Below, piece after piece: positions 2,228-31,765 of a DNA stretch of 64,000 bases. Numbering within the stretch: the stretch's first letter is position 1; each line of letters begins with the position of its first letter. The notes beneath the pieces were generated by a model. That model ran no database searches and was not told where the DNA came from. It was given only the letters and a program-made list of their open reading frames with translations. This DNA comes from an uncultured virus (IMG/VR IMGVR_UViG_3300032324_000268) (Duplodnaviria; Heunggongvirae; Uroviricota; Caudoviricetes), in the IMG/VR virus record IMGVR_UViG_3300032324_000268; one strand, 5' to 3'. Position numbers and translations under genes: made by a program.

Positions 2228-2524
2228 ATGCCACGCCAAGAATTCTATCAAAATGGTGAACTCGTAAGAGTTGAGGACACCCGAACATTAGCCGAAGCCA
2301 TTGAGGAGAGAAAAGAGGTGTGGGCGGAGCAAACCACTCGGCTTATACGCACCAAGGTCACAGAGACCGACGAACGTAACTGTGCAAACGGAATCTACGA
2401 TGAAGACAAGAGGGCTCAGATCCTCGGCTGGGTTAACGAGTGCCGTAATAAGTATTTAGCTTGCAAGGCGACCGCACTGGCTTGCAGCACTAACGAAGAA
2501 GTAGACGCAATTCGCTACGAGTAG
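2228..2524 (+). CDS. tail fibre assembly chaperone-like (DUF4376-like)
   Basis: Helical acidic protein ending ACSTNEEVDAIRY, after fibre-like gene. Confidence 0.45.
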   Translation: MPRQEFYQNGELVRVEDTRTLAEAIEERKEVWAEQTTRLIRTKVTETDERNCANGIYDEDKRAQILGWVNECRNKYLACKATALACSTNEEVDAIRYE

Positions 2525-2535
2525 AAATACTCTTA

Positions 2536-3117
2536 ATGCCCACTGTCCTCCCATTAAAGATCCGTAAAGCTCCGACGATTTACGAGGTTAGCGCAGCGAG
2601 CAGAGCAAAGGGTAGAACAGGGAATGGCCTGATGAAGGTGAAGGGACCAAGAGCTGGAACGTTTTACGAGCCACCAGGCGCTACTGACGCCCGAAGGTGG
2701 AACTGCGGAGCTACTGGTTTTGAGTTTGTAAAGCCTTCAAGTGGGACGCCGACGTATAGGTATTATCCAAGTATGAATAGGAATAACTGGAACGACGACT
2801 TCCTTTATGGGACACCCACATATGCTGAGTCGAGCCACTCTAGATATGCTTTTTGGCAGTCCGTGTCCCCAAATCTCTACTCATTCCTCAACACTTACCA
2901 CTCTGGAGGATTGCCCGCCAACAAGCTTATTAGGGTATGGGTTTCTTGGGATAGGCTGATGGTATTTCAAATGGGCAGAGAACCTATTTACTCTCCTCAG
3001 TATCAGCTACCTAACGGCAAAATAGTGGATTGTTACTATACTCAAAAGTCTAGAGCCTATGTATATCTCCCGAACTCTTCCGCTGGTGTTTGTTGTCTGT
3101 ATGCTATCTTTGATTAG
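2536..3117 (+). CDS. hypothetical protein upstream of group I ribozyme
   Basis: 193 aa ORF, Tyr/Trp-rich. Confidence 0.65.
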   Translation: MPTVLPLKIRKAPTIYEVSAASRAKGRTGNGLMKVKGPRAGTFYEPPGATDARRWNCGATGFEFVKPSSGTPTYRYYPSMNRNNWNDDFLYGTPTYAESSHSRYAFWQSVSPNLYSFLNTYHSGGLPANKLIRVWVSWDRLMVFQMGREPIYSPQYQLPNGKIVDCYYTQKSRAYVYLPNSSAGVCCLYAIFD

Positions 3118-3125
3118 TTCTTTAA

Positions 3126-3329
3126 CAGATTATCGGCCCATACTGCTTAAATTCGGTGGAACTCTCGAGAGACTCTCGAGACAATACCGAGCCAAGACAT
3201 GCACACTTGCATGTAAGGTGTAGAGACTACTGGAGGGAAAGGAACCCTTAATGACCAGCACGAACAAGCAGGGTGTCTAACGACATCAAGATATAGTCCA
3301 ATCCACCCGGCGACGGGTTGGTATAAATG
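3126..3329 (+). ncRNA. group I intron/ribozyme catalytic core, ORF-less (5' boundary uncertain)
   Basis: P3 CTGCTT(3143)/AAGCAG(3266); P4 TTCGGT/ACCGAG; P5 TCTCGAGA hairpin; P6a ACATGCA/TGCATGT; R element AAGGTGTAGAGACTA; P7 GACTA/TAGTC; P7.1-type insertion; P8 GGTGTC-TAAC-GACATC; S element AAGATATAGTCC; P9 with GCGA tetraloop; omega-G 3329. Confidence 0.92.
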
Positions 3330-3369
3330 CGTTCCTCATTAGGGAGCGGGTCAAAGCATAGATAAGGTA

Positions 3370-3396
3370 TTGACAGATTCTAAAAGGTATTAGGAT
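3370..3396 (+). promoter_or_regulatory. sigma70-like promoter for capsid operon
   Basis: TTGACA-N15-TAGGAT; same short spacing recurs at other promoters in the window. Confidence 0.55.
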
Positions 3397-3582
3397 TTAG
3401 ATTAGCTGTCTGGAATTGGCATGGGCGTACTCGCGGGCCGCCACCGCGTTAGCTGAGACTGGGTTAGCATCGGGCAATAAAAGCTTCGGGATGCCGCCGA
3501 GGAAACCAAACACAGGAATTGCCGTACTCTTCGAGTATGGGTTTACAATTTCTTAACGTATTTCGAAAGGATATTTAATAAT

Positions 3583-4905
3583 ATGGCTACTGATTATACG
3601 AATATCGAGCAGTTGCTGATTTCTGAAAGTAATCGCATCGGCGAAGATATTTATCGCAAGACGGTTGATACGAGCCCCTGGCTCAAATTGGTTAAACAAG
3701 ATGCTTGGCCGGACGAGATGGGTGACACCGTTTCTGTCTTGGTTTACGAGCGGTCGCTTCCTTATGATGCCTCCGGACCTAAGATCAATTGGTCTGATCT
3801 TACGCAAAACGGTGGTGCTTATGGTGGCACGCTGAGCTACAACGGAACCGGAAACGCCGCCGCTAGCTCGGATTCATTCCCTGCTTCCGGTGGAACGCTT
3901 GACTTCGGTCAGACGCTTCGGACTTACGGACTGCAACACGCAGCCCTTGAATCCCCGAACATCTCGCTGAATGACCTGCGCTTCCCCGTTAAACGGAAAG
4001 AACAGCTCTCCAACATTATGCAGATCATGACTGAATCTACGACTGACGTCTGGATTCAGCGGTATCGTGATCAGTACGTTGACCAAGCCGAAAACAAGCT
4101 CTTGGCTACTTCTGCCACGGATCTTACTGGCTTGACCAACGCTGACACCGCAATCACAGGGACCATTCGCACGTTGAAGACTGGTAACAATAGTCGTGCA
4201 AACGTGTCTCCGGCCGCTGCCGACTCTTCATTCGCACACACGACTGCCGCGAATACTGGAGTTACTCAGCTGACCCAAACCATCCTTGATCGGGTGTACA
4301 TGGATCTTCTCCGTAACGGAGCAGGTGCAAACGCCTACGATCGGGCCAACGGAGCCCCTGTGTTCTTGGCGATTATGTCGCCCGAAACCAGTGATTCCTT
4401 GATTCGCGCTAATGCGGATATCCGTCAGGACTTCCGCTGGAGCGAACGAGTCAGCGAACTCCTCGCACCCCTCGGCGTACAGCGCAGCTACCGCAACTTC
4501 CATCACTTGGTCGATGCGTTTGCTCCCCGCTATAACTTGGTTAGCAACGTTTGGACTCGGATTTATCCGTTTGTCCGCACGACCAACCAGAGCCCCAACA
4601 CGAGCCGTCAAGGATTCAAGTATGAATTGAATTCTAACTACCTCACTGCCACCTACGAAGATACCATCATCTTCGTTCCCGAAGTGTTCACCAGCTTGGT
4701 TCCCAAGCCCTTGAGCATTACGGACGGCATGGAGTTCAACGCTCAGAACTATCGTGGTGAGTTCACTTGGAGGAACATCCTCGATCGCGATAACAATCCG
4801 GACGGGACCCTCGGGTTCTTCCGCGCCATTTTCAGTAACGGCGCGAAACCCATCTTCCCGCACATGGGATATGTTATCCGTCATGCGCGTAACACCATCG
4901 CCTAA
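3583..4905 (+). CDS. major capsid protein
   Basis: 440 aa; AAAGGA RBS; biased codon usage; long structured leader; followed by small decoration-like gene and strong hairpin. Confidence 0.8.
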   Translation: MATDYTNIEQLLISESNRIGEDIYRKTVDTSPWLKLVKQDAWPDEMGDTVSVLVYERSLPYDASGPKINWSDLTQNGGAYGGTLSYNGTGNAAASSDSFPASGGTLDFGQTLRTYGLQHAALESPNISLNDLRFPVKRKEQLSNIMQIMTESTTDVWIQRYRDQYVDQAENKLLATSATDLTGLTNADTAITGTIRTLKTGNNSRANVSPAAADSSFAHTTAANTGVTQLTQTILDRVYMDLLRNGAGANAYDRANGAPVFLAIMSPETSDSLIRANADIRQDFRWSERVSELLAPLGVQRSYRNFHHLVDAFAPRYNLVSNVWTRIYPFVRTTNQSPNTSRQGFKYELNSNYLTATYEDTIIFVPEVFTSLVPKPLSITDGMEFNAQNYRGEFTWRNILDRDNNPDGTLGFFRAIFSNGAKPIFPHMGYVIRHARNTIA

Positions 4906-20989: not shown

Positions 20990-23900
20990 ATGGCTCAGAC
21001 GATTCCAACGCCTGGTAGCGACGCAGTAATAGCTTCTCAGCCTCCCGTCAAGGGAGAATTTGATTGGTTGAACGACACTTTGGGGCTAACACCTCAACCC
21101 AAAAAGTTAGTTGGTTTGGAAGATATCGAAGGTTTAGGGGATCCGCTAACTGAAGCTGAGAAAGCTCTTGAAAACCCTTTCTTAAAACTACCTAAAGCCA
21201 ATCCTAAAGATTTCATTGATACTGTTAGAAAGGATTGGGAAATCGGTCAAGAGGGCGTCAATATTGATATGGCCACTGACGATTTCGCAACGCAGGTTTT
21301 AACCTCTGGTCAGCCGGGAGACTACAGCCAGTTACAAAACAAGCGTAAGGCTTTGGCGAAATCACAGTACTTTAACCAAGCCGATAACCTAGTTAGTCGA
21401 GCTGTCCACGGAACTGTGCAGATGTTGCCCCCGATGGCTCAAGGACAATTGTCTGGTATTGAGAAGGGTGTTGAACGTGGGATGCAGATGGGACTTATTG
21501 GGTCTTCTGGATTCGTTGCTGGGCCAGAGGTTGGTGCACCGATGGTTACTGCGTTTACGGGTGTCGGAGTTGCTGGTGGTAACCTAGAGGGCTCTTTCAA
21601 CTACTGGACAAAGCAAGGCCGAGGAGCGTCGTTTGCGGAGTTGGTAGACGCTGGTGTGAACCAAGTCACTGCCGCGAATATCGCCCAATTTGTTGGTCCG
21701 GCTTACGCAGCTATCGAATACGCCCAAGTTGGAAAACTTTTGGACATAGCTGGCGGGAAAGAGCTTAAGCGTGGTTTATTGCGTGGGGCAATGCAACAAC
21801 TTGCGAAGGTTGTCCCCGCTGGTGCTAAAGTTGCCGCAGAGAAAGTAGCTCAAGTTTCGGCTAGGCCACTTGTAAGGGGTGCTGTCGACGTTGCTGGTGA
21901 TATATTGGTACAAGCTGGTGAAGAAGCGGCTCAAGGTGCCGTGTCTCAAGCTGGTACAGAATACGGAAGATCCCAACAACAGCTTATCGCTCAAGGTGCT
22001 CGTGACGGAGCTATGGAAGTGCTCGCAAACCTAGACCTACCAGAAGCGTCTAAACAAGTGTTGTCCCGTGGTTTTGACGAGTTCGCAAGTAGCATTGGGC
22101 CGATGGCAGTTCTTACTGGTGGTGCAAAGGGGACGAACTTCCTTCGTAAAGCCTCATGGGATGGGTTTGTATCCCTAGCGAACGGGGACATCCAGAAAGC
22201 CGCAGATCAGCGTGATGCTGTGGCTAAAGCGGGAGCACCTCAGACTGCACAAGCTTTAGCTGAGACTCTCGAAACGGAGCCAAGTTCGGTTAAGCCGACA
22301 GCAGCGACTGTCACACCGACAGCTCCAGTGGTTGCCCCTATCGACGAGCCAGCCCTTGATGCGGAACTAGAGGCCGCTGGTCAAGCACCAGTGGAAGCCG
22401 AACAGCCCGAAGCTCCTAAGCCTACTGTGGGTCTGCCTGGTGATGAGTTGGGTGCAAGGATCTTCTCAAACATCCGTGCCCGTAAGCCTATTGCAAAGGT
22501 CGATCTAGACCAGGTTGGTGGATTCTCGTTGTCTTCCGATTGGAAGCTAAACGAAGAGACGGGTAACTTCGAATACCAAGGACCAGTTTATGAAAGAAAA
22601 GAAGCTCCGAAAGTTCCAGTCGCAAAAGCAGAAGCCGCCCCAATCGCACAGCCAGAAGTCAAAGCTCCAGAAGCCCAAGCCGTCGCTCCTATCGAAGCCC
22701 CTAAGCCCCAGCCTGCTCAAAAAGGTGCAGAAGCTGTCGCTCCTACATTAACTCCAGAAGTTGACCAGCCGACTCAGACTGCAAATGGCTGGCTTGGAGA
22801 GGTAGACAGAGCCAAGACACAAAAAGAAAAAAGCTCTTTGGTCAGAATGTTCAAAGGCAAGGTTAATTCATTGTCGGCGAACGATCAAAAGGCCGCGGCT
22901 ATTTTCAATGAAAAGCTTTTGCAAAGACAACAAGGAACTGCACCGAAGGTTGAGGCTCCTAAAGTTGAAGCACCCAAGGTCGAGGCTACCGCACTTCCGA
23001 GATGGGAAGAAGTCCAGAAGAACAAGGATCAGATCAAGTTCCTCAAGTCCGTTTTCAAGAAGGCAAACGCCAAGCTTACCAAAGAGCAACAAGTAACCCC
23101 CAAGGTTGGCTGGAAGCGGAAGGATTTCTACTCGGCTCTAGAACGGATGTATGGTCAGCTAACTCAGCTTGAGTTCAAGCAACCTGAGCAAGTTGCACCA
23201 CCAGCACCGAAGGTTGGCGAATCCCCGAAGCCAACTGCGATCAACGAGGCCGAGCAACGCAGAAAGCTCAAGCTTGCTAACCTGCTAAAGGTATTCGGAA
23301 ACAAGGATCTCGATGGTGACCAAACGCTATTCCGTGATATTGCTATGGCTCAAGCTCGGAAAGTTGCTTCACAGATTGCCACACAATTTCAAAACCTAAC
23401 TGACCCAGACGGAGAAATCTACAACGGGTTGATCTCGGCTATTGCCACCCGCCTTAAGAAGTCTTTCGATAACAAGACACCAGTGTTCTTCAACGAAGCT
23501 GGTGAGCCGATTGCTATCAATGACGAGTCAGTAAAGAAGTGGCTGATGAAAGCCGCGGATCGTGCTGGACGAGATACCGCCAGACGCCAATCCGCACAGA
23601 GAGAAATCAACATTGAGTTCGGTGGCAAGCCAGCCGAAGGAGTTGTCACGCAACCCGAAGCCGCCAAAGAAGAAGCCAAGCCCGAGGGCATGCAAGTCAA
23701 AGAGGTTGCCCCAGAGGTCAAGGAAGAGCCCCGTGGAATTCGAGCAATTCGAGAAGCCGCTCAAGCTATTCGGGAACAGAGCAGTCCAGAAGCAAAGCTT
23801 GTTTTGGATTGGGTCGTGTCTCAGTTGGTTGGGGAAGACTCGGCATTGGGCAAGATCAAGACATACAAGGAACTCGCAACCTATCTGTCCAAGGTTGCTA

Positions 23901-26900
23901 AACGGACGATCAGCGACAAACGAGTTGGGTTGACTGTAAACGATGTTGTTAAGAAGCTGGCTGACAATCTTTCGGAAATCGGAATTAAGGTAAACGTCGA
24001 AGCCCTTGAGATGGCACTTAGCCCCGAGGGTCAGAAAGCCAAGGAACGTCTTGCGGCTGAGGAAGCCAAGGCGAAAGCCTCTCGTGACGAGAGAGTGGCT
24101 AAGGCGAACCTATCCGATCGTGCTAGAAATCTTCGTTCTGGTTATGCAGTAAAAGAGAGGCTTGTGGATGCGGTTGCATCAGCAACCCCAGAAAACAGAG
24201 CGAGAATTCAAAACGAAGTCATATCGTTGGCAGAAGAAAATCTTCTAGCCGATGACGACATCAACAACAGACTCGATAACATCGAGAAAGGATTACCGAA
24301 TGAAAAGCCCGCAATTGGACAACCTATTCCCCGGCGTCAACGCCGAGGCGTTAAACAAGCTAAAGAAGGCGAAGTTCTCGGCGGAACTGGAGAAGGCGTC
24401 GAAGGTGCACGGGGGATTACCAGCCCTGTCGCAACTACTGAGGGACAACCCCAACCTGGGGCACGAGGAGCTGAACCAGTCGGTGCACGACCTAGCGGAG
24501 CTGGACAGCAAGTGGGCGGAAAACAGCAAACAGCTACGGGAAATGTTTCCGTTGACGTAAGGCTATCCGAGAATAACAGAAGCCCCGCAGTTAAGACTTT
24601 GGTTCAAACGGCTACCTCCAACGGAGTTCCAGTTACATTACAAGATTCTCCAGAAAGCGGATCGGCTGTTAGTGTAGACACCAATCAAGTCGAAGGACAA
24701 GAAGTCCCAACCATTCGAGTTAACCAGAACAAGCTTAAAGAAGTTCGTCGAACACTTGGGCCAAAGGCTTTTGCCGAATGGTCTTGGAGAGCTATCAACC
24801 AAGAGATTATTCACTTTAGGCATCTCAAGCTTCTTGATCGTCTAGCCAAAGAGGAAGGTACTGATTACAAGAGCTACCTCGAGAAGGAGGCCAAGAGGAT
24901 CGTACAGATCATCAAGAGACAGCGTGGTCTTCGCAAGAGGATCGAGGCTATCTACAACAACGGCGAGAAGATGGATGACTTCAACCTTGCGTTCGAGTTC
25001 ACCCGAATGCTTGTCGAAGAGAAGATGATGGGCGGAATTACAGAGTCCTCCTATATGGACATCGCCAAGGTTCTTAACTCTGTGGATGCCGAAGGCCGAG
25101 GATTTATCTTTAGGTTTATGGAGCTTGTTCGGGATTTGATGTACGGATTGACTGGGCGTACCGCAGCGGAGACCAAGTTCCTTCGTGCAACGGCTGACGC
25201 TATCATCAGCGAGCAACGCAAAGTTATGCGGGACTTATACAACCCGACTGAGAAGCTTCCCGTACAAGTAAATTTCTATACACCAAAGGAAAAGGTTATA
25301 GTTGGATCTGCCGCAGATCGCAAAGCGTCTGAAGAGGAGATCAAACAAGATAGTGGCTTGAACCGAGCCAGTATGCCATTCCTCCGTGAATACGCCAGAG
25401 AGCTTGGGATCAAGGAACCTATGGGCCAGCGGAAGATGGAGGTTCGCGACGAAAAGACTGGCAAAATTAGGGAGCAGAAAGTTTCATTCCCAGTTTGGAA
25501 GAAGCCCGATTATGTAAGGGCGATCAAAGAGAAGCTTAAGGAACTCGGTAAGAAGTCAAAAGAACCGACGGAACTTGGTGCTGCATTACCTACCGATCGG
25601 CCTTACTGGCTGAAAGATGACGGAGAGGTTCTTGATGTCGAAGAGAATGCTCTCGTCGATATGAACTCAATCGGTAGCCACTCCGAAGCCGCGGTTCAGT
25701 TCCTCCAGGAAAACGATCCAGAGAATCCTTTCTTGTTGGAGTGGTCTCTTCTAGACCCGTTGCAGAAGAAGGATCGTCAGCAGTTGCCAGTTCAAGAGAT
25801 GTTCAACAAGGGTTGGCTCCGTGTAATCGGTGACGGGTTTAACTTGTTCTTTGAAGGAACTCCGAACAAGCCGCAGTTAGACAAGCTGTTCGAGGCCGCA
25901 ATCGAGGATGAAGTTAAGTTGATTCACGACAAGACCGGATTGTCGGGTAGGCCAAAATCTAAGCTTCTATACGAGCCACCGCTCGAGGACGAGCTTAACG
26001 CCGCAATGCCTCGGCGTGGATTCTCTTCTAGCGAGCCTAGATTCAGTAAGTCTTGGAAGGCTCTTCCCGACTCTGTAATTGGTTTGACTGAAGTATATAA
26101 AATGAAGCGTGGCACTAACGATGTCCGCCTATACCGAGATGAGATGGGCGATACATTCGTAATTAAGCGTGGTCAGTCACGTGAACAATTCGAAAACGAG
26201 CTTGCGGCAGATAACGTCTACCGAATTCTCAATTATCCAGTTCCACCTTCCAGATTGATTACTGACGAGAATGGGGAAACAGCCAAAATCGCCAATTACG
26301 TGGAGGGCCCGATACTCGCAGATTTCCAAGAGAATATGGCGGAAGCAGACCCAGATGCTGTTAACGCGGTGTTTGAGGAACTTGGTGATGGGCTTCTGAT
26401 TGACGCCTTCTTGTTTAACTATGACGTCCTAGGGGAAGGGTTAGACAACATTGTTGTCGCTCACGAAGAAGTCACAGAAGAAGACGGGCTAGCATTCCCA
26501 GAGCCGTTGATCAAATACACGGCATACCGAATCGATAATGGTGGAACTCTGGACACTCGGGCAATGGGTCTCAAGAGAGATGAGCCATTTTTCTATGACT
26601 CATTCTCTAGGTTAGCCGAAAAGTACCCGCAGTTTAATCTCACAGCCACAGATCTTGTGGCACAGCTTTCCGATATCGTACTCAACAGCGATGCTATTCT
26701 AAACGCAATCCCAGCCAGACTACGGCCTATGATGGCTCAAAGAATCCAATGGATGGCAGATCAGCTAAGTGCGGTTGATACAATCCCTTCAGCAATCGGA
26801 TACTCTGACGAAGATGTTACAGCACATTTCGCCAAATTGGCCAAGGAGATGGATTCCATTAAGGTTGTTCGGAACGCTCAAGGAGAGCTGATAAACGAAA

Positions 26901-29900
26901 AGACTGGTGAGCCTTCTAGGATTTATTTAATCGACATAAACGGGAAAACCACTGGCTTTATCCCGAAGTCCGAATTTAGGTACAAGTTGGAGAGAACTAA
27001 AGCTTTCAAGATGTGGTTTGGGGATTGGGAAAATGCACCAGAAGCATTGGGGACAAGCAAGATTCTTGATGAGGCTGGTGAGCCAATGATGATGTATCAC
27101 GGGACAAACTGGACTACAAAAGAGTCGATGTATATGTTTAAGGACGACATCGATAAAGAAACACAAGGGTTGAATCTATACCGCAGACGTTTCTCCCAGG
27201 GCAACCTATTCCGAGGAACTTGGACATCTTCAAGCCAAAAGTTCTCCGAGGACTGGGCAAACGAAACCTCGGCTGGGGAGTACGCTCAACAAGTTGTCAT
27301 ACCAGTATACGTAAAGAGCACAAACCCATTTGACCCACGCAATCCCGAGCACGCTTCCAGATTGGTAAACTATCTCGAAAACAGGTACTCTGTTGATGCC
27401 GGAATTAACGCCTTCATACCAACTCGGGATATGCGTGTGGCTATGGAGTTTGGTTTTTATGATTGGTCTTACTTTGAAAACACCGCACCAGAGTTTCCAG
27501 CAATGGGTTCCGCTTTTGAGCAGAAGGATGAGGAGGCTCGTCGTAAGGAATTCTTTGCAAAGCACCCGTACCCAATCCTTGAGGCTATTATCAATCTTGG
27601 GTTTGACGGAATGTGGGTAAAAGAAAAGGGGCTTGGTTTCCCAGGATCTATTGAAAGTAGACCAAAAAATTTGGTACAAGAGCTCGAGATAATCCGAAGA
27701 AGTGACGACAAGAGTGTTGAAAAGCAAACTATCGAGAACCTTAAACAAGACATAACGGAATACAACAATAACTCAACCTGGAACCACTTGTCGTTCCGTT
27801 CGGATGGCATCAAGTCATCAGCTAACACGGGTAAGTTTAAAGCGGATAAACGAAAGACGTTTAAGCCAGCTCAAGAAGCACAGCGTTTCGTCAACTACGT
27901 AACTAGAAATCGTAAGACTCTTTGGAACGAATTTCAGAAGGGTGGTAAGACGTATGCTTCTTACGACTCAAGAGAGAATCTAGTAAGTTACGCATATTCC
28001 GATCCAAGGACTTTGGCAAGGGCTAACATCGAGAGGACTGAGATGAAGAACGGGGTTGTGTTCTTTAGTGCTAGGTCGGTTGAGGGTGTGCGTAGTCCAG
28101 ACCGCAAGCCTACCGATATTCTTGGAGCCGCGATGCCTCGCCAGTTCGGAGTTCGCATAAAGGACAAGATGCAGGCTGATGCTTACGACAAGCTTAAGAA
28201 CTTAACTTACGAGCCGATCCCAGATAGCATGGTTCAAGAAGAAGCCGAAGCGTATCTGGAGAAACACGGAATCCGTGGTGCTATGGATGCTACCATTTCC
28301 AAGTCGAGTCCTCTTGAACACGGGTCACGTGAGTTGCTGGCTCAAATGATTATCTTAAAGCTTAACGAGCAGTATAAGAAAACCAAAGATGCTAGAGTCT
28401 TGGAAGAGTTAATCGACTATACCGATACCTTTTTGGCGATCACTTCTGAGGCTGGACGTGCTCTTAGGCAGTTGTCTTTCTGGAGCAAGCTGTCACCCGA
28501 GGGGATGTTGATGCTCTACAAGAAGAAGCTTGATGAGTCAAATCGTGAGACCCGTGACCGATTCAATGAATTCTTTGCGAAGGTAAAGCGTGAGCTTTCG
28601 ACGTTGCCAGCTGGAGCACTAGATCAAGCCTTGAAGAGTATGGAAGGTTTGTTGGGTAAAGCCGATAAAGCCGCAGAAGAATCTCGTAAGAAGCTTGCTA
28701 CCAGCAACACTATGACTTTCTGGGAGAACTTCTCCAAACAGATTGGCGATAGCCTTGTTCAGAAATCTCAAGAGCAACTCAACATTGCAGAGGAAGAGCT
28801 TGCTCGCACTGCTGGTGGAGAGGCAACACCCGAAGGCGAGTTGGCTAGGAATAAGGTCAACAACGCAAAGACGATCAACCAAGCAGCCCAAGAGATGAGC
28901 CGTAATATCAAGCAGATGTTCCTAGCTCTTGCCAAAGAACAAGGTAAGAACATTCGAGATCCTCGGGTTCTCACGGACGAAGAGTTTGCCAATAAGACGG
29001 ACGAAGAGGTTGCAAAGATTCAACAAGCAGAACGGGATTCTAAGCAAGCACAGAAGTTTACGGATATGTTGGCGAGATGGCCGAAAGCCTTGCAAGCTTG
29101 GCAAACAGCGACGGACGCTATTCGTGCTCAGACATCCGTCAATCCTGAACTGGCTACTATGTTCCAGAGTTTTCTAGACCTCACTCTTGAGACCCCATTC
29201 ACGATGCCACAACTCAAACGATTCTTGTCTCTAAGAGGCGTTAAACTAGAAGACCTAATCCGTGAGCATTACCAAGAAGGTAAGCTGGCGAACAACGCTT
29301 ACTCTCTAGCCAAGGAGATGGTCGAGGAGGCTGGTCTTGGGGCATGGGAAGAGGAGACTGGTTCGGAGGTGACAACTCCTCTTGAGCCAGTTGCGGAAGG
29401 TGAAGAGCCAAAACCTTTAACAACGAAACTCCCTAGCCTTTCGGAACGACTAACACAAGCCCTTGCCCTTCAGATCGAGAAGTATGCTGAGACAGAGTCA
29501 GCAAAGAAACTTAATCGATTGATTGATTCTTATGCTGACAAACGTCTTGAACCATCTCTCAAACGCTTTATGAAGCGTATGGTTCAGTATCAAGCCTTGG
29601 GATTATTCAACAACGCCTATGCCTGGAACGAATTTCAGAAGCAAGAAGGGTTGGATAAAGTAAAGCCAGAGGTTGTAAATCAGATTCTTGATATTATGGG
29701 CAAGGCGGAAAAGCTTGTTGGGTTTAGGAAAGAAGAGGCATACGCCGATGCGCTTTCACTTATCTCTTACCACACGAACACAGGCTTTTGGAACTTCACC
29801 AAGTCTTGGTGGTACTTGAGCATATTGTCGGGCTTCACTACTCAAGTCGCTAACATTGCAGGCAATGCATATAACACAATGCTGTTGACTGTACCGACTA

Positions 29901-31765
29901 TCGGGAAACATTTGATTGCTGGAACTATTGACCCCGCCAGAAGCAAGGCAATCTTCAAGCAGATGACCAGAGCAATGTCTCTGTCGTTACAAGATTTAGG
30001 ATACTTGCTTACGACTGGTAGGGTCGGAACTCGCAAGTCAGACAACCCATTCTTCTCGCAAGCAAGCACAGATTACTTCGAAGTTATCGCAAAGAATACC
30101 CCGTATCGAGCCGCAAGGATTTCCTCTACGGCAGCCGCTATGGTGCGTAGAGTTATGTCTGGGGTTGATATGATGTTCTACAACTTCAACAAGGAAGTCT
30201 ATTTGTTTGATTCTGCTTACAATGACGCAAAGAAATCTGGGCTTACTGGGTCGGAGGCTATTGCTAAAGCACTTGACTTGACTTTCAGAAGCTCTGAAGC
30301 ATTGCAGTCTGCTCAAGCTTTGGCCGAAAAGGAAGGTTACGTAATTGAAGCGGAAGGCTTGGTGGAAAGGGCAAAGCAGAAGATAGAGCAATCGATTCGT
30401 ATCCAAGAGATCATCGACGCAAACGTTACGGGGTCTGAGGAGAGTTCAAGGGTGGCTATTGGGGCGCAAGTATATGGAGAAGAGCTTACGTATAACGAGG
30501 AGCCCAAGGGCTTCTTGGGTGCTCTGCATAGATCTATTTCTTCCCTAACGGTTAAGTATGGTTTGGTATCCGTGCCGATCCCTTTCACAAAGATCGTAGC
30601 AAACGTATGGAACCAAGGTCTCGACGCCACTGGTCTCGGGATCTTTAGGTCTGGGAAGTTAGCCCACGGAAAATTGGCTAAAGCGTTCCCCTTCCTTAAA
30701 GTGCTAGAGAGACTCGAGATGAAGGGTCTTAAGGGGTCAGCTGATGAGGTTCAAGCTCAGAAGGATATGATGTTCGTAAGAGGATTTAATGCTCTTGCCG
30801 CAGTAGGTATTATTACCTTGTTGGACAGAGTTCTTTGCGGTCAGTATGAAACTTATGGGTTTGAGCTTTGCGTAAACGGTCCTGGCCCTAAAGAACCAGC
30901 ACAAAAAGAACTGCTTAAGAATCGTTTGGGTTGGAAACCGAATTCGCTTTTCATCCGCACACCAGGTATAGATGGCATCTATCTTAGCTATATGTTGTCA
31001 CCCCTAGCCATTCCGTTGGCTGGTGTCGGACTATTAAAAGATAACGAGATTTATAACTACTACGCCAAGAAGTCACCAAAGGACGCTTCCCTAGCCTTGG
31101 CTCATAGACTTTTGACTGTACCGATGGAGATGAACTTTTTGTCTGGTCTTGGGGACTTGTTTGAAATCTTGAGCCCCAACAACCCAGAGACCGCTCTTGC
31201 TAAAGCCAAGTCATTCCTTTCAAGAATGGGTTCAGCAATGGTTGTCCCGAACTTCTTTAGGGATGTCGACCAGCTTATTGTGTCTAGCCTACCGGGGGTG
31301 CTTAACCCAAGGACGGCTAGAGAAGACATTATACAAGCAGCATTTATTTCCAATACTCCAATCATTCGGCAAATGTACGGAAGTGCTGAGCTTGATATCT
31401 TAGGTCAACCGATTGAGATGACTTCACGAGTTGCGAGCATTGCCGGGAAAGATGCTTTGGTGGATGTGCTTATCCAAAAGAATGCTCTCCCGACTGCTCC
31501 CAAAAAAGACAAATTGCTTGGTCTTGTCCCAATGGACGATACTCAATACGCACAGTATCGTGAATACAGAGCAAAACAACTTGGGGAAGATCTTAACACG
31601 CCAGAAATGATTGAAACCCTATCTAGAATGGAACCTGGAATAGCTCAGATGTATGTTCAGAAATATACCCAGAAAGCTAGCCAATTGGCCAAAGCAAAGA
31701 TTCTGAGGGGAAGCCCAGAGATACTAAAAGAGGCAAGAGAAACAAAAGCTAAACAGATTAAATAG
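20990..31765 (+). CDS. giant polyvalent internal virion protein (sigma-like, zincin-like, HeH, HipA/PI3K-like kinase, ART-PolyVal-like, C-terminal ejection domain)
   Basis: 3591 aa; kinase DAFLFNYD..DN..RIDNGG; ART FKMWFGDW..SKILDEAGEPMMMYHGT; QEIIH; sigma region 2/4 patterns. Confidence 0.8.
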   Translation: MAQTIPTPGSDAVIASQPPVKGEFDWLNDTLGLTPQPKKLVGLEDIEGLGDPLTEAEKALENPFLKLPKANPKDFIDTVRKDWEIGQEGVNIDMATDDFATQVLTSGQPGDYSQLQNKRKALAKSQYFNQADNLVSRAVHGTVQMLPPMAQGQLSGIEKGVERGMQMGLIGSSGFVAGPEVGAPMVTAFTGVGVAGGNLEGSFNYWTKQGRGASFAELVDAGVNQVTAANIAQFVGPAYAAIEYAQVGKLLDIAGGKELKRGLLRGAMQQLAKVVPAGAKVAAEKVAQVSARPLVRGAVDVAGDILVQAGEEAAQGAVSQAGTEYGRSQQQLIAQGARDGAMEVLANLDLPEASKQVLSRGFDEFASSIGPMAVLTGGAKGTNFLRKASWDGFVSLANGDIQKAADQRDAVAKAGAPQTAQALAETLETEPSSVKPTAATVTPTAPVVAPIDEPALDAELEAAGQAPVEAEQPEAPKPTVGLPGDELGARIFSNIRARKPIAKVDLDQVGGFSLSSDWKLNEETGNFEYQGPVYERKEAPKVPVAKAEAAPIAQPEVKAPEAQAVAPIEAPKPQPAQKGAEAVAPTLTPEVDQPTQTANGWLGEVDRAKTQKEKSSLVRMFKGKVNSLSANDQKAAAIFNEKLLQRQQGTAPKVEAPKVEAPKVEATALPRWEEVQKNKDQIKFLKSVFKKANAKLTKEQQVTPKVGWKRKDFYSALERMYGQLTQLEFKQPEQVAPPAPKVGESPKPTAINEAEQRRKLKLANLLKVFGNKDLDGDQTLFRDIAMAQARKVASQIATQFQNLTDPDGEIYNGLISAIATRLKKSFDNKTPVFFNEAGEPIAINDESVKKWLMKAADRAGRDTARRQSAQREINIEFGGKPAEGVVTQPEAAKEEAKPEGMQVKEVAPEVKEEPRGIRAIREAAQAIREQSSPEAKLVLDWVVSQLVGEDSALGKIKTYKELATYLSKVAKRTISDKRVGLTVNDVVKKLADNLSEIGIKVNVEALEMALSPEGQKAKERLAAEEAKAKASRDERVAKANLSDRARNLRSGYAVKERLVDAVASATPENRARIQNEVISLAEENLLADDDINNRLDNIEKGLPNEKPAIGQPIPRRQRRGVKQAKEGEVLGGTGEGVEGARGITSPVATTEGQPQPGARGAEPVGARPSGAGQQVGGKQQTATGNVSVDVRLSENNRSPAVKTLVQTATSNGVPVTLQDSPESGSAVSVDTNQVEGQEVPTIRVNQNKLKEVRRTLGPKAFAEWSWRAINQEIIHFRHLKLLDRLAKEEGTDYKSYLEKEAKRIVQIIKRQRGLRKRIEAIYNNGEKMDDFNLAFEFTRMLVEEKMMGGITESSYMDIAKVLNSVDAEGRGFIFRFMELVRDLMYGLTGRTAAETKFLRATADAIISEQRKVMRDLYNPTEKLPVQVNFYTPKEKVIVGSAADRKASEEEIKQDSGLNRASMPFLREYARELGIKEPMGQRKMEVRDEKTGKIREQKVSFPVWKKPDYVRAIKEKLKELGKKSKEPTELGAALPTDRPYWLKDDGEVLDVEENALVDMNSIGSHSEAAVQFLQENDPENPFLLEWSLLDPLQKKDRQQLPVQEMFNKGWLRVIGDGFNLFFEGTPNKPQLDKLFEAAIEDEVKLIHDKTGLSGRPKSKLLYEPPLEDELNAAMPRRGFSSSEPRFSKSWKALPDSVIGLTEVYKMKRGTNDVRLYRDEMGDTFVIKRGQSREQFENELAADNVYRILNYPVPPSRLITDENGETAKIANYVEGPILADFQENMAEADPDAVNAVFEELGDGLLIDAFLFNYDVLGEGLDNIVVAHEEVTEEDGLAFPEPLIKYTAYRIDNGGTLDTRAMGLKRDEPFFYDSFSRLAEKYPQFNLTATDLVAQLSDIVLNSDAILNAIPARLRPMMAQRIQWMADQLSAVDTIPSAIGYSDEDVTAHFAKLAKEMDSIKVVRNAQGELINEKTGEPSRIYLIDINGKTTGFIPKSEFRYKLERTKAFKMWFGDWENAPEALGTSKILDEAGEPMMMYHGTNWTTKESMYMFKDDIDKETQGLNLYRRRFSQGNLFRGTWTSSSQKFSEDWANETSAGEYAQQVVIPVYVKSTNPFDPRNPEHASRLVNYLENRYSVDAGINAFIPTRDMRVAMEFGFYDWSYFENTAPEFPAMGSAFEQKDEEARRKEFFAKHPYPILEAIINLGFDGMWVKEKGLGFPGSIESRPKNLVQELEIIRRSDDKSVEKQTIENLKQDITEYNNNSTWNHLSFRSDGIKSSANTGKFKADKRKTFKPAQEAQRFVNYVTRNRKTLWNEFQKGGKTYASYDSRENLVSYAYSDPRTLARANIERTEMKNGVVFFSARSVEGVRSPDRKPTDILGAAMPRQFGVRIKDKMQADAYDKLKNLTYEPIPDSMVQEEAEAYLEKHGIRGAMDATISKSSPLEHGSRELLAQMIILKLNEQYKKTKDARVLEELIDYTDTFLAITSEAGRALRQLSFWSKLSPEGMLMLYKKKLDESNRETRDRFNEFFAKVKRELSTLPAGALDQALKSMEGLLGKADKAAEESRKKLATSNTMTFWENFSKQIGDSLVQKSQEQLNIAEEELARTAGGEATPEGELARNKVNNAKTINQAAQEMSRNIKQMFLALAKEQGKNIRDPRVLTDEEFANKTDEEVAKIQQAERDSKQAQKFTDMLARWPKALQAWQTATDAIRAQTSVNPELATMFQSFLDLTLETPFTMPQLKRFLSLRGVKLEDLIREHYQEGKLANNAYSLAKEMVEEAGLGAWEEETGSEVTTPLEPVAEGEEPKPLTTKLPSLSERLTQALALQIEKYAETESAKKLNRLIDSYADKRLEPSLKRFMKRMVQYQALGLFNNAYAWNEFQKQEGLDKVKPEVVNQILDIMGKAEKLVGFRKEEAYADALSLISYHTNTGFWNFTKSWWYLSILSGFTTQVANIAGNAYNTMLLTVPTIGKHLIAGTIDPARSKAIFKQMTRAMSLSLQDLGYLLTTGRVGTRKSDNPFFSQASTDYFEVIAKNTPYRAARISSTAAAMVRRVMSGVDMMFYNFNKEVYLFDSAYNDAKKSGLTGSEAIAKALDLTFRSSEALQSAQALAEKEGYVIEAEGLVERAKQKIEQSIRIQEIIDANVTGSEESSRVAIGAQVYGEELTYNEEPKGFLGALHRSISSLTVKYGLVSVPIPFTKIVANVWNQGLDATGLGIFRSGKLAHGKLAKAFPFLKVLERLEMKGLKGSADEVQAQKDMMFVRGFNALAAVGIITLLDRVLCGQYETYGFELCVNGPGPKEPAQKELLKNRLGWKPNSLFIRTPGIDGIYLSYMLSPLAIPLAGVGLLKDNEIYNYYAKKSPKDASLALAHRLLTVPMEMNFLSGLGDLFEILSPNNPETALAKAKSFLSRMGSAMVVPNFFRDVDQLIVSSLPGVLNPRTAREDIIQAAFISNTPIIRQMYGSAELDILGQPIEMTSRVASIAGKDALVDVLIQKNALPTAPKKDKLLGLVPMDDTQYAQYREYRAKQLGEDLNTPEMIETLSRMEPGIAQMYVQKYTQKASQLAKAKILRGSPEILKEARETKAKQIK

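Follow-up and report, generated by a model that had tools for sequence, protein, structure and literature searches.

The window, i.e. the whole stretch of 64,000 nucleotides that was analysed, is phage-like and stems from a lake; an ORF of 3591 aa was noticed at 20990-31765 within its run of structural genes. The locus described here has all its features on the plus strand and starts with an ORF of 193 aa at 2536-3117, the last gene before a ribozyme. The encoded protein has 26 homologues with lengths of 153-195 aa. It had no match in PHROG, Pfam or NCBIfam, and Atlas and fold searches, the latter with a model of pLDDT 54, gave no clear match; a known homing endonuclease was not recognised in these searches, and the protein may also occur in a fused or split form. 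A query with this protein returned 7 loci, and the ribozyme follows the ORF in all of them. The ORF, the ribozyme and a short exon lie in a segment (2524-3350) that is missing from the nearest relative: L001 and G001 match 2200-2523 and 3351-3800, the two matches being separated by 3 nt. A hairpin GAGTA-GAAA-TACTC (2519-2532) is located at the left edge of this segment; it was not seen ahead of the ORF in five relatives inspected.

Downstream of the ribozyme, 3583-4905 encodes a protein of 440 aa, which is probably the major capsid protein. In a Foldseek search with a low-confidence model (pLDDT 49) the best ten rows were all phage capsids with a best E of 0.014, while family searches were without a match and a PDB sequence search returned only DARPin noise. 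The capsid query yielded 32 loci, two of which carry the ribozyme. A promoter-like element with TTGACA (3370-3396) precedes the capsid gene in 32/32 loci at a distance of 210-258 nt from the capsid start. A scan of the window for consensus sigma-70 promoters made no call at 3370-3396 because the best second hexamer is only 15-16 nt off. Further features of the capsid leader are a conserved, ribozyme-independent motif at 3472-3498 without an Rfam match, and a hairpin at 3522-3540 whose arms co-vary in relatives. Blastn matched the 3472-3498 motif even where the capsids are just 42-44% identical. The long leader (3395-3582) is itself a candidate for a separate regulatory RNA.

Group I core, guide and predicted splice sites

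The Rfam model RF00028 matched 3089-3320 with 55.6 bits at a cut-off of 50; there was no other Rfam match in the window. The catalytic core spans 3143-3299 with P3 (3143-3148/3266-3271), P7 (3223-3229/3294-3299) including the G-binding pair G3225-C3298, and P4, P5, P6/6a, P7.1, P7.2 and P8 in between, so that the complete set of helices can be drawn. In an alignment of 19 related cores 95.6% of the cells were paired and 29 of 52 pairs had changed on both sides; P3 is among the covarying helices, and P7 including the G-binding pair is invariant (19/19). Helices P7.1 and P7.2 between P7 and P3, a mark of the IA2/IA3 subgroup, were found at 3230-3258. The core is followed by P9.0 (3301-3302/3327-3328), P9 with a GNRA loop and the omega-G 3329 as 3' splice site (3300-3329). 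The alignment shows two-sided changes for each of the two P9.0 pairs, and P9.0 takes five different pair types over 39 loci, which fixes the position of the omega-G. The P3-P9 core, the P7 G-C pair and the omega-G with P9.0 that characterize group I introns are all present, and family comparison adds a P1 with a U.G pair at the 5' splice site (G3136.U3351).

The original prediction had combined a guide, an omega-G and natural back-splicing in a self-targeting geometry. These elements were supported by the comparison with relatives, whereas the splice coordinates were not. The proposed guide GCCCATACT is found at 3136-3144, its target GTATGGGTTT at 2935-2944 and 3535-3544, and CG at 3134-3135 as well as G3329 followed by CG are present. 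The family supports a shorter guide, GGCCC at 3135-3139, in which G3136 forms the wobble pair and CCC the remainder of P1; G3135 would pair with C3352 first and with C3330 afterwards (P10). Only a 3-nt joiner (3140-3142) connects P1 to P3, without a P2, and most permuted loci share the distance from this G to P3. The predicted 5' splice site lies 3' of the omega-G: GGGU/C at 3348-3352, with the cut at 3351/3352, is present in 7/7 loci of the ORF family; the original prediction did not include this third site. Between the two splice sites remains an exon of 22 nt (3330-3351), the predicted circle. It folds into a hairpin of -9.1 kcal/mol with both-sides changes in 3 of 6 stem pairs among 5 sequences, and is read in differing frames among relatives. 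In 39 family loci the predicted exons are 18-93 nt long.

Within the window the near site at 3348-3352 lacks an energetic advantage. Its duplex with the guide was calculated at -6.5 kcal/mol as compared to -9.2 kcal/mol for the 8-nt guide on either of the other two sites, and opening it costs 6.2 kcal/mol (4.0 without G3348) versus 3.3 kcal/mol for the upstream site. An additional helix 3100-3112/3352-3360, which would close L1, was unsupported in the window, where 18 of 100 shuffles were equally stable. Inside the window's own subfamily P1 is invariant; thus its covariation stems from distant members. On the basis of comparison, the core, the omega-G at 3329 and P1 of 3135-3139 with 3348-3352 are shown.

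The motif AGTTCTTT is located at 3116-3123, and a similar motif was found in 18 of 42 permuted loci and in 0 of 99 other cores. A weaker local P1 (3115 with 3128) that had been proposed as an alternative is unneeded, and the stretch it borders is this separate family motif. Directly upstream, ATAAATA was noticed in 16/42 permuted loci and 7/99 others; it resembles a T4 late promoter, and transcription of the ribozyme may begin separately at this point. Beside the motif, within 3086-3123, the final ten codons of the 193-aa ORF contain 3 of its 5 invariant four-fold sites.

Guide and site in the wider family

Searches with core-only patterns gave 31, 118, 82 and 118 matches, where two of the four numbers are to be read as "at least", and flanks were taken for 80 loci per search. 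Among the matches listed 142 distinct cores were kept, 82 of them with P7.1/P7.2. The core annotation overlooked variant P4 starts; L065 and L069 are among these and were added by hand to the set of 39 loci described below. Judged from the flanks by eye, a large number of the cores belong to ordinary introns, which interrupt tRNA genes, nrd-like genes and others. The remaining type is intergenic, lying a few tens of bases past a stop codon, and lacks P2; such cores are described by the following features: a guide of the G-CCC type just 5' of P3 and a complementary site 3' of the omega-G. Matches in bacterial genomes were never permuted (0/5); the permuted forms were in phage and metagenome contigs. 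We rejected the view that a single protein family is tied to all permuted ribozymes, the upstream proteins falling into several unrelated groups. The 193-aa protein has a weak likeness to those of L054, L235 and L242 (E 0.003-0.01) and none to the other groups.

The pairing was assessed in a blind test with the guide defined by position only. Enough flank and a G in register were available for 65 of the 82 cores, and we counted complementary 5-nt sites 35-160 nt downstream and in an upstream window of equal size against dinucleotide shuffles. A downstream site was found in 35/65 cores (16.2 expected, p 1e-7), an upstream site in 14/65 (11.5 expected, p 0.24). The downstream excess persisted with one representative per cluster (15/33; 8.0 expected, p 0.004) and with the strictest clustering (8/19; 3.9 expected, p 0.023), although three of these eight matches (L048, L210, L244) look non-permuted. 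The signal is diluted because ordinary introns were kept in the set. When the cores were filtered for absence of P2, downstream sites occurred in 27/37 (10.2 expected) and upstream sites in 6/37 (6.6 expected).

For a closer view 39 loci were picked by eye with close kin included and sites assigned by best pairing, so the counts from this set favour the model. Guide and site were GCCC/GGGU in 27 loci, GCCA/UGGU, GCCU/AGGU and GUCC/GGAU in 2 each, and GGCC/GGCU and GCCG/CGGU in 1 each; 4 of 6 GCCU guides had a mismatch at the fourth pair. Perfect guide-site pairing was seen in 33/39, while shuffling gave 15.6 with a maximum of 25 in 20000. Immediately 5' of the guide G stands a nucleotide that pairs with the one following the cut in 38/39 loci (G-C 26, U-A 10, C-G 1, G-U 1); its pairing with the first nucleotide of the exon holds in 36/39. 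From these sequences, guide and site change jointly in several lineages. In the MAFFT alignment A3 of the cores the variable exons were misaligned, and P1 was left uncounted there.

Five loci (L046, L049, L202, L233, L251) are organised differently. The guide before P3 is missing and a full P1 hairpin consisting of GGGU, a loop and UGCCC is situated 3' of the exon. The strand after this hairpin pairs with the 5' flank at -10 to -32 kcal/mol; equally stable shuffles numbered 0, 0, 0, 1 and 6 per 200, respectively. In these loci P2 thus appears to be rebuilt by long-range pairing, which points to L2 as a second permutation point. Because they share guide, site and register with the window in an intact hairpin, they lend separate support to its P1. 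In L230, with a guide GGGUC and GGCCU downstream, the ribozyme may be permuted and yet have retained P2.

A permuted ribozyme was also found in a cultured phage, Flavobacterium phage vB_FspM_immuto_2-6A (MW353175; 2450-2712 of L396). It has the guide GUCC, the site GGAU, a predicted circle of 18 nt, a longer joiner to P3 and a terminator after the element, and is placed after a tail-fibre gene and one small ORF. Its core is annotated as a hypothetical CDS of 44 codons. As an observation on other loci, six introns (L110, L135, L207, L236, L245, L300) by eye seemed to split tRNA-Leu(UAA) before the anticodon loop, and their 5' exons apparently end in A rather than U.

Competing explanations of the locus

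The element could be an ordinary intron with a long L1 that is cut at 2942/2943 and loses 2943-3329. The original prediction had offered this as an alternative isoform and, as far as coordinates go, a join of 2942 to 3330 would indeed encode 139 aa. The upstream site offers the longest complementarity (8 nt), is the most open match in the window, and retains its GTA codon in 6/7 loci, where merely 5 of 40 four-fold sites are invariant; in addition, nrd-like introns with the same type of core have long upstream ORFs. The complementarity itself persists as GTATGGGT in 5 of 6 relatives, and breaks down in L229, where GTCTGGGT costs one pair without compensation. Yet three of the eight pairs would need bases of J1/3 and P3, so the 3' half of the long guide cannot pair in the folded core, and loci whose upstream genes are unrelated share this half unchanged. 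In 4 of 7 loci the nucleotide behind the cut is unable to pair with G3135. The extra pairing of 2950-2958 with 3126-3134, which holds at 8/9 positions in the window, drops to 6, 5, 6, 1, 6 and 5 of 9 in six relatives and is thus not a conserved feature. The site at 2935-2943 corresponds to codons of V134-W135-V136 in a VWVSWD motif that is invariant in 27 proteins, as are the residues past the cut (S137, W138, D139, GVCC, YAIF). Behind the omega-G follows the covarying hairpin in a frame that varies among relatives, no allele with joined exons was seen, and in 4 of 35 members of the family an upstream copy of the site is lacking altogether. The usual layout of an intron is further contradicted by the absence of upstream site enrichment, the intergenic position and a nearest relative that lacks ORF and ribozyme together. 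The 139-aa isoform is therefore unsupported, and we hold an ordinary intron to be improbable; the upstream site is at most secondary, and a side reaction at 2942 may occur.

Still less credible, indeed nearly negligible, is back-splicing of 3542 to 3330, from which a circle of 213 nt and a shortened capsid mRNA would result. The match in the leader is exact and rare: the 10-mer GTATGGGTTT has two copies only on both strands of the 64 kb, with 0.083 copies expected on one strand by an order-2 model. However, none of six distinct relatives with ORF and ribozyme conserves the site at 3534-3542, and among 32 capsid leaders it recurred once, in L001, the nearest relative, which has neither ORF nor ribozyme. 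Opening 3535-3543 has the highest cost (9.8 kcal/mol), and the site is separated from the ribozyme by the conserved promoter-like element. The 213-nt circle was rejected since the leader match is missing in relatives with the ribozyme and forms the 3' arm of the capsid-leader hairpin; the conserved position is 3351/3352, which would give 22 nt. For an action in trans on capsid transcripts, also suggested earlier, the comparison provided no support.

Two further readings accept the near site or the fold and dispute the product. Possibly just the GTP-driven downstream cut matters by freeing or silencing the next message, and a circle does not accumulate. An ORF begins 0-10 nt past the cut in 16/39 loci, as expected for this case, but there is no ORF after the cut in the window, a terminator follows within about 35 nt in 3 loci, and both conservation and covariation are seen at the omega-G, in P9.0 and at the P10 pair; we consider this reading unlikely, if less so than an intron. 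An inactive relic, or a structured RNA that has the group I fold yet lacks catalysis, would agree with the patchy presence (2/32 capsid loci) and with RNA contigs of relatives that show no joint at the proposed sites. Small shares of the stretch were contained in three lake metatranscriptomes. The RNA contigs, which derive from relatives, span the core (3092-3299, 3103-3253 and 3132-3299), with gaps at 2702-3036 and 3305-3371. Four joints were listed, none of them at a proposed site, and contigs cannot reveal a 22-nt circle. RNA coverage ended at 3299 in two studies, which may reflect an assembly branch. Against a relic stand the invariance of P7 and the G site in 19/19 cores, the covarying helices and the splice-site pairings retained over unrelated gene contexts, and we rate it about as improbable as the ordinary intron.

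Proposed reaction, role and related systems

We favor the view, with a probability of roughly 0.7, that a circularly permuted group I ribozyme occurs here naturally as a free-standing element whose opening lies in loop L1, with the order guide, core, omega-G, 22-nt exon and 5' splice site. By analogy to group I chemistry, free guanosine bound at G3225-C3298 would attack after U3351 and release the downstream RNA tagged with G. The 3'-OH of U3351 would then attack after G3329 and close 3330-3351 to a circle. A third product would be the upstream message terminating in the folded ribozyme.

As to its role, we tentatively prefer transcript processing at the end of a gene cluster, where the ribozyme would sever the downstream RNA, at somewhat less than even odds. 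In the window the cut would separate read-through into the capsid promoter, and the circle would be a by-product that renders the cut hard to reverse. Of the 39 loci, 16 have an ORF start after the predicted cut, 7 (the group of the window) have TTGACA and 3 have a terminator, whereas no feature was recognised there in the other 13. This variation does not support a single downstream purpose; common to the permuted loci is the placement right behind a gene. We judge the processing role more probable than the other readings, among them an active selfish element, which is doubtful. Equally doubtful is that phages independently opened L1 and L2 to obtain a widespread class of circularising ribozymes whose products act during infection, either with the circle as effector RNA or with the spent ribozyme as an RNA endonuclease in trans; such a spent ribozyme, with free guide and 3' G, would cut GGGU-like sites including 2942 in its own message.

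Our literature searches, for the most part of openly accessible papers, did not turn up a permuted group I ribozyme of natural origin in phages or in free-standing form, and term searches of PMC10085705, PMC11878797 and bioRxiv 10.64898/2026.10.21.760802 gave no mention of one. In print this layout appears to be restricted to engineered constructs and one coral mitochondrial intron. The latter, the ND5-717 intron of corallimorpharian mitochondria, is a case of natural group I back-splicing (Chi et al. 2019, PMC6545197); its exons encode ND5, and most of the genome lies between the two parts of the intron, which are separated in P8. The phage element is unlike it in being compact, free-standing and opened in L1 or L2, and instead of coding exons of a host gene it would splice a tiny non-coding hairpin exon, 22 nt here and of variable length elsewhere.

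With the IA phage introns (T4 td, Twort; RF00028) the element shares the core, P7.1/P7.2, P9.0 and the omega-G, and near-identical cores from the same search set interrupt tRNA and protein genes. Unlike these introns, the element of the window interrupts no gene and has neither P2 nor an upstream splice site. Its order of guide and core first and target last resembles engineered self-targeting circularisation (STS), for which it is reported that this geometry works in vitro and that P1 alone is sufficient (Lee et al. 2023, PMC10457212). Loci opened in L2 are similar to PIE, the mechanism of which is outlined in a review (PMC4344496). Differences to STS and PIE are the natural origin, a guide of 4-5 bp and a phage-type core with P7.1/P7.2. 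CP group II ribozymes, reported to be of unknown role, form circles of 15-86 nt (Roth et al. 2021, PMC8637638). Like them, the group I loci are predicted to have splice sites in reversed order that are separated by less than 100 nt, and a small circle, here of 18-93 nt; unlike them, they have a group I core and guanosine chemistry, no branch and no D1-D6. If our reading is correct, the element corresponds on the group I side to the CP group II ribozymes and represents in nature what has been engineered for making circular RNA; its compact cores and the two permutation points would then be available as parts, and the cultured phage immuto_2-6A makes the cellular role of permuted splicing ribozymes testable.
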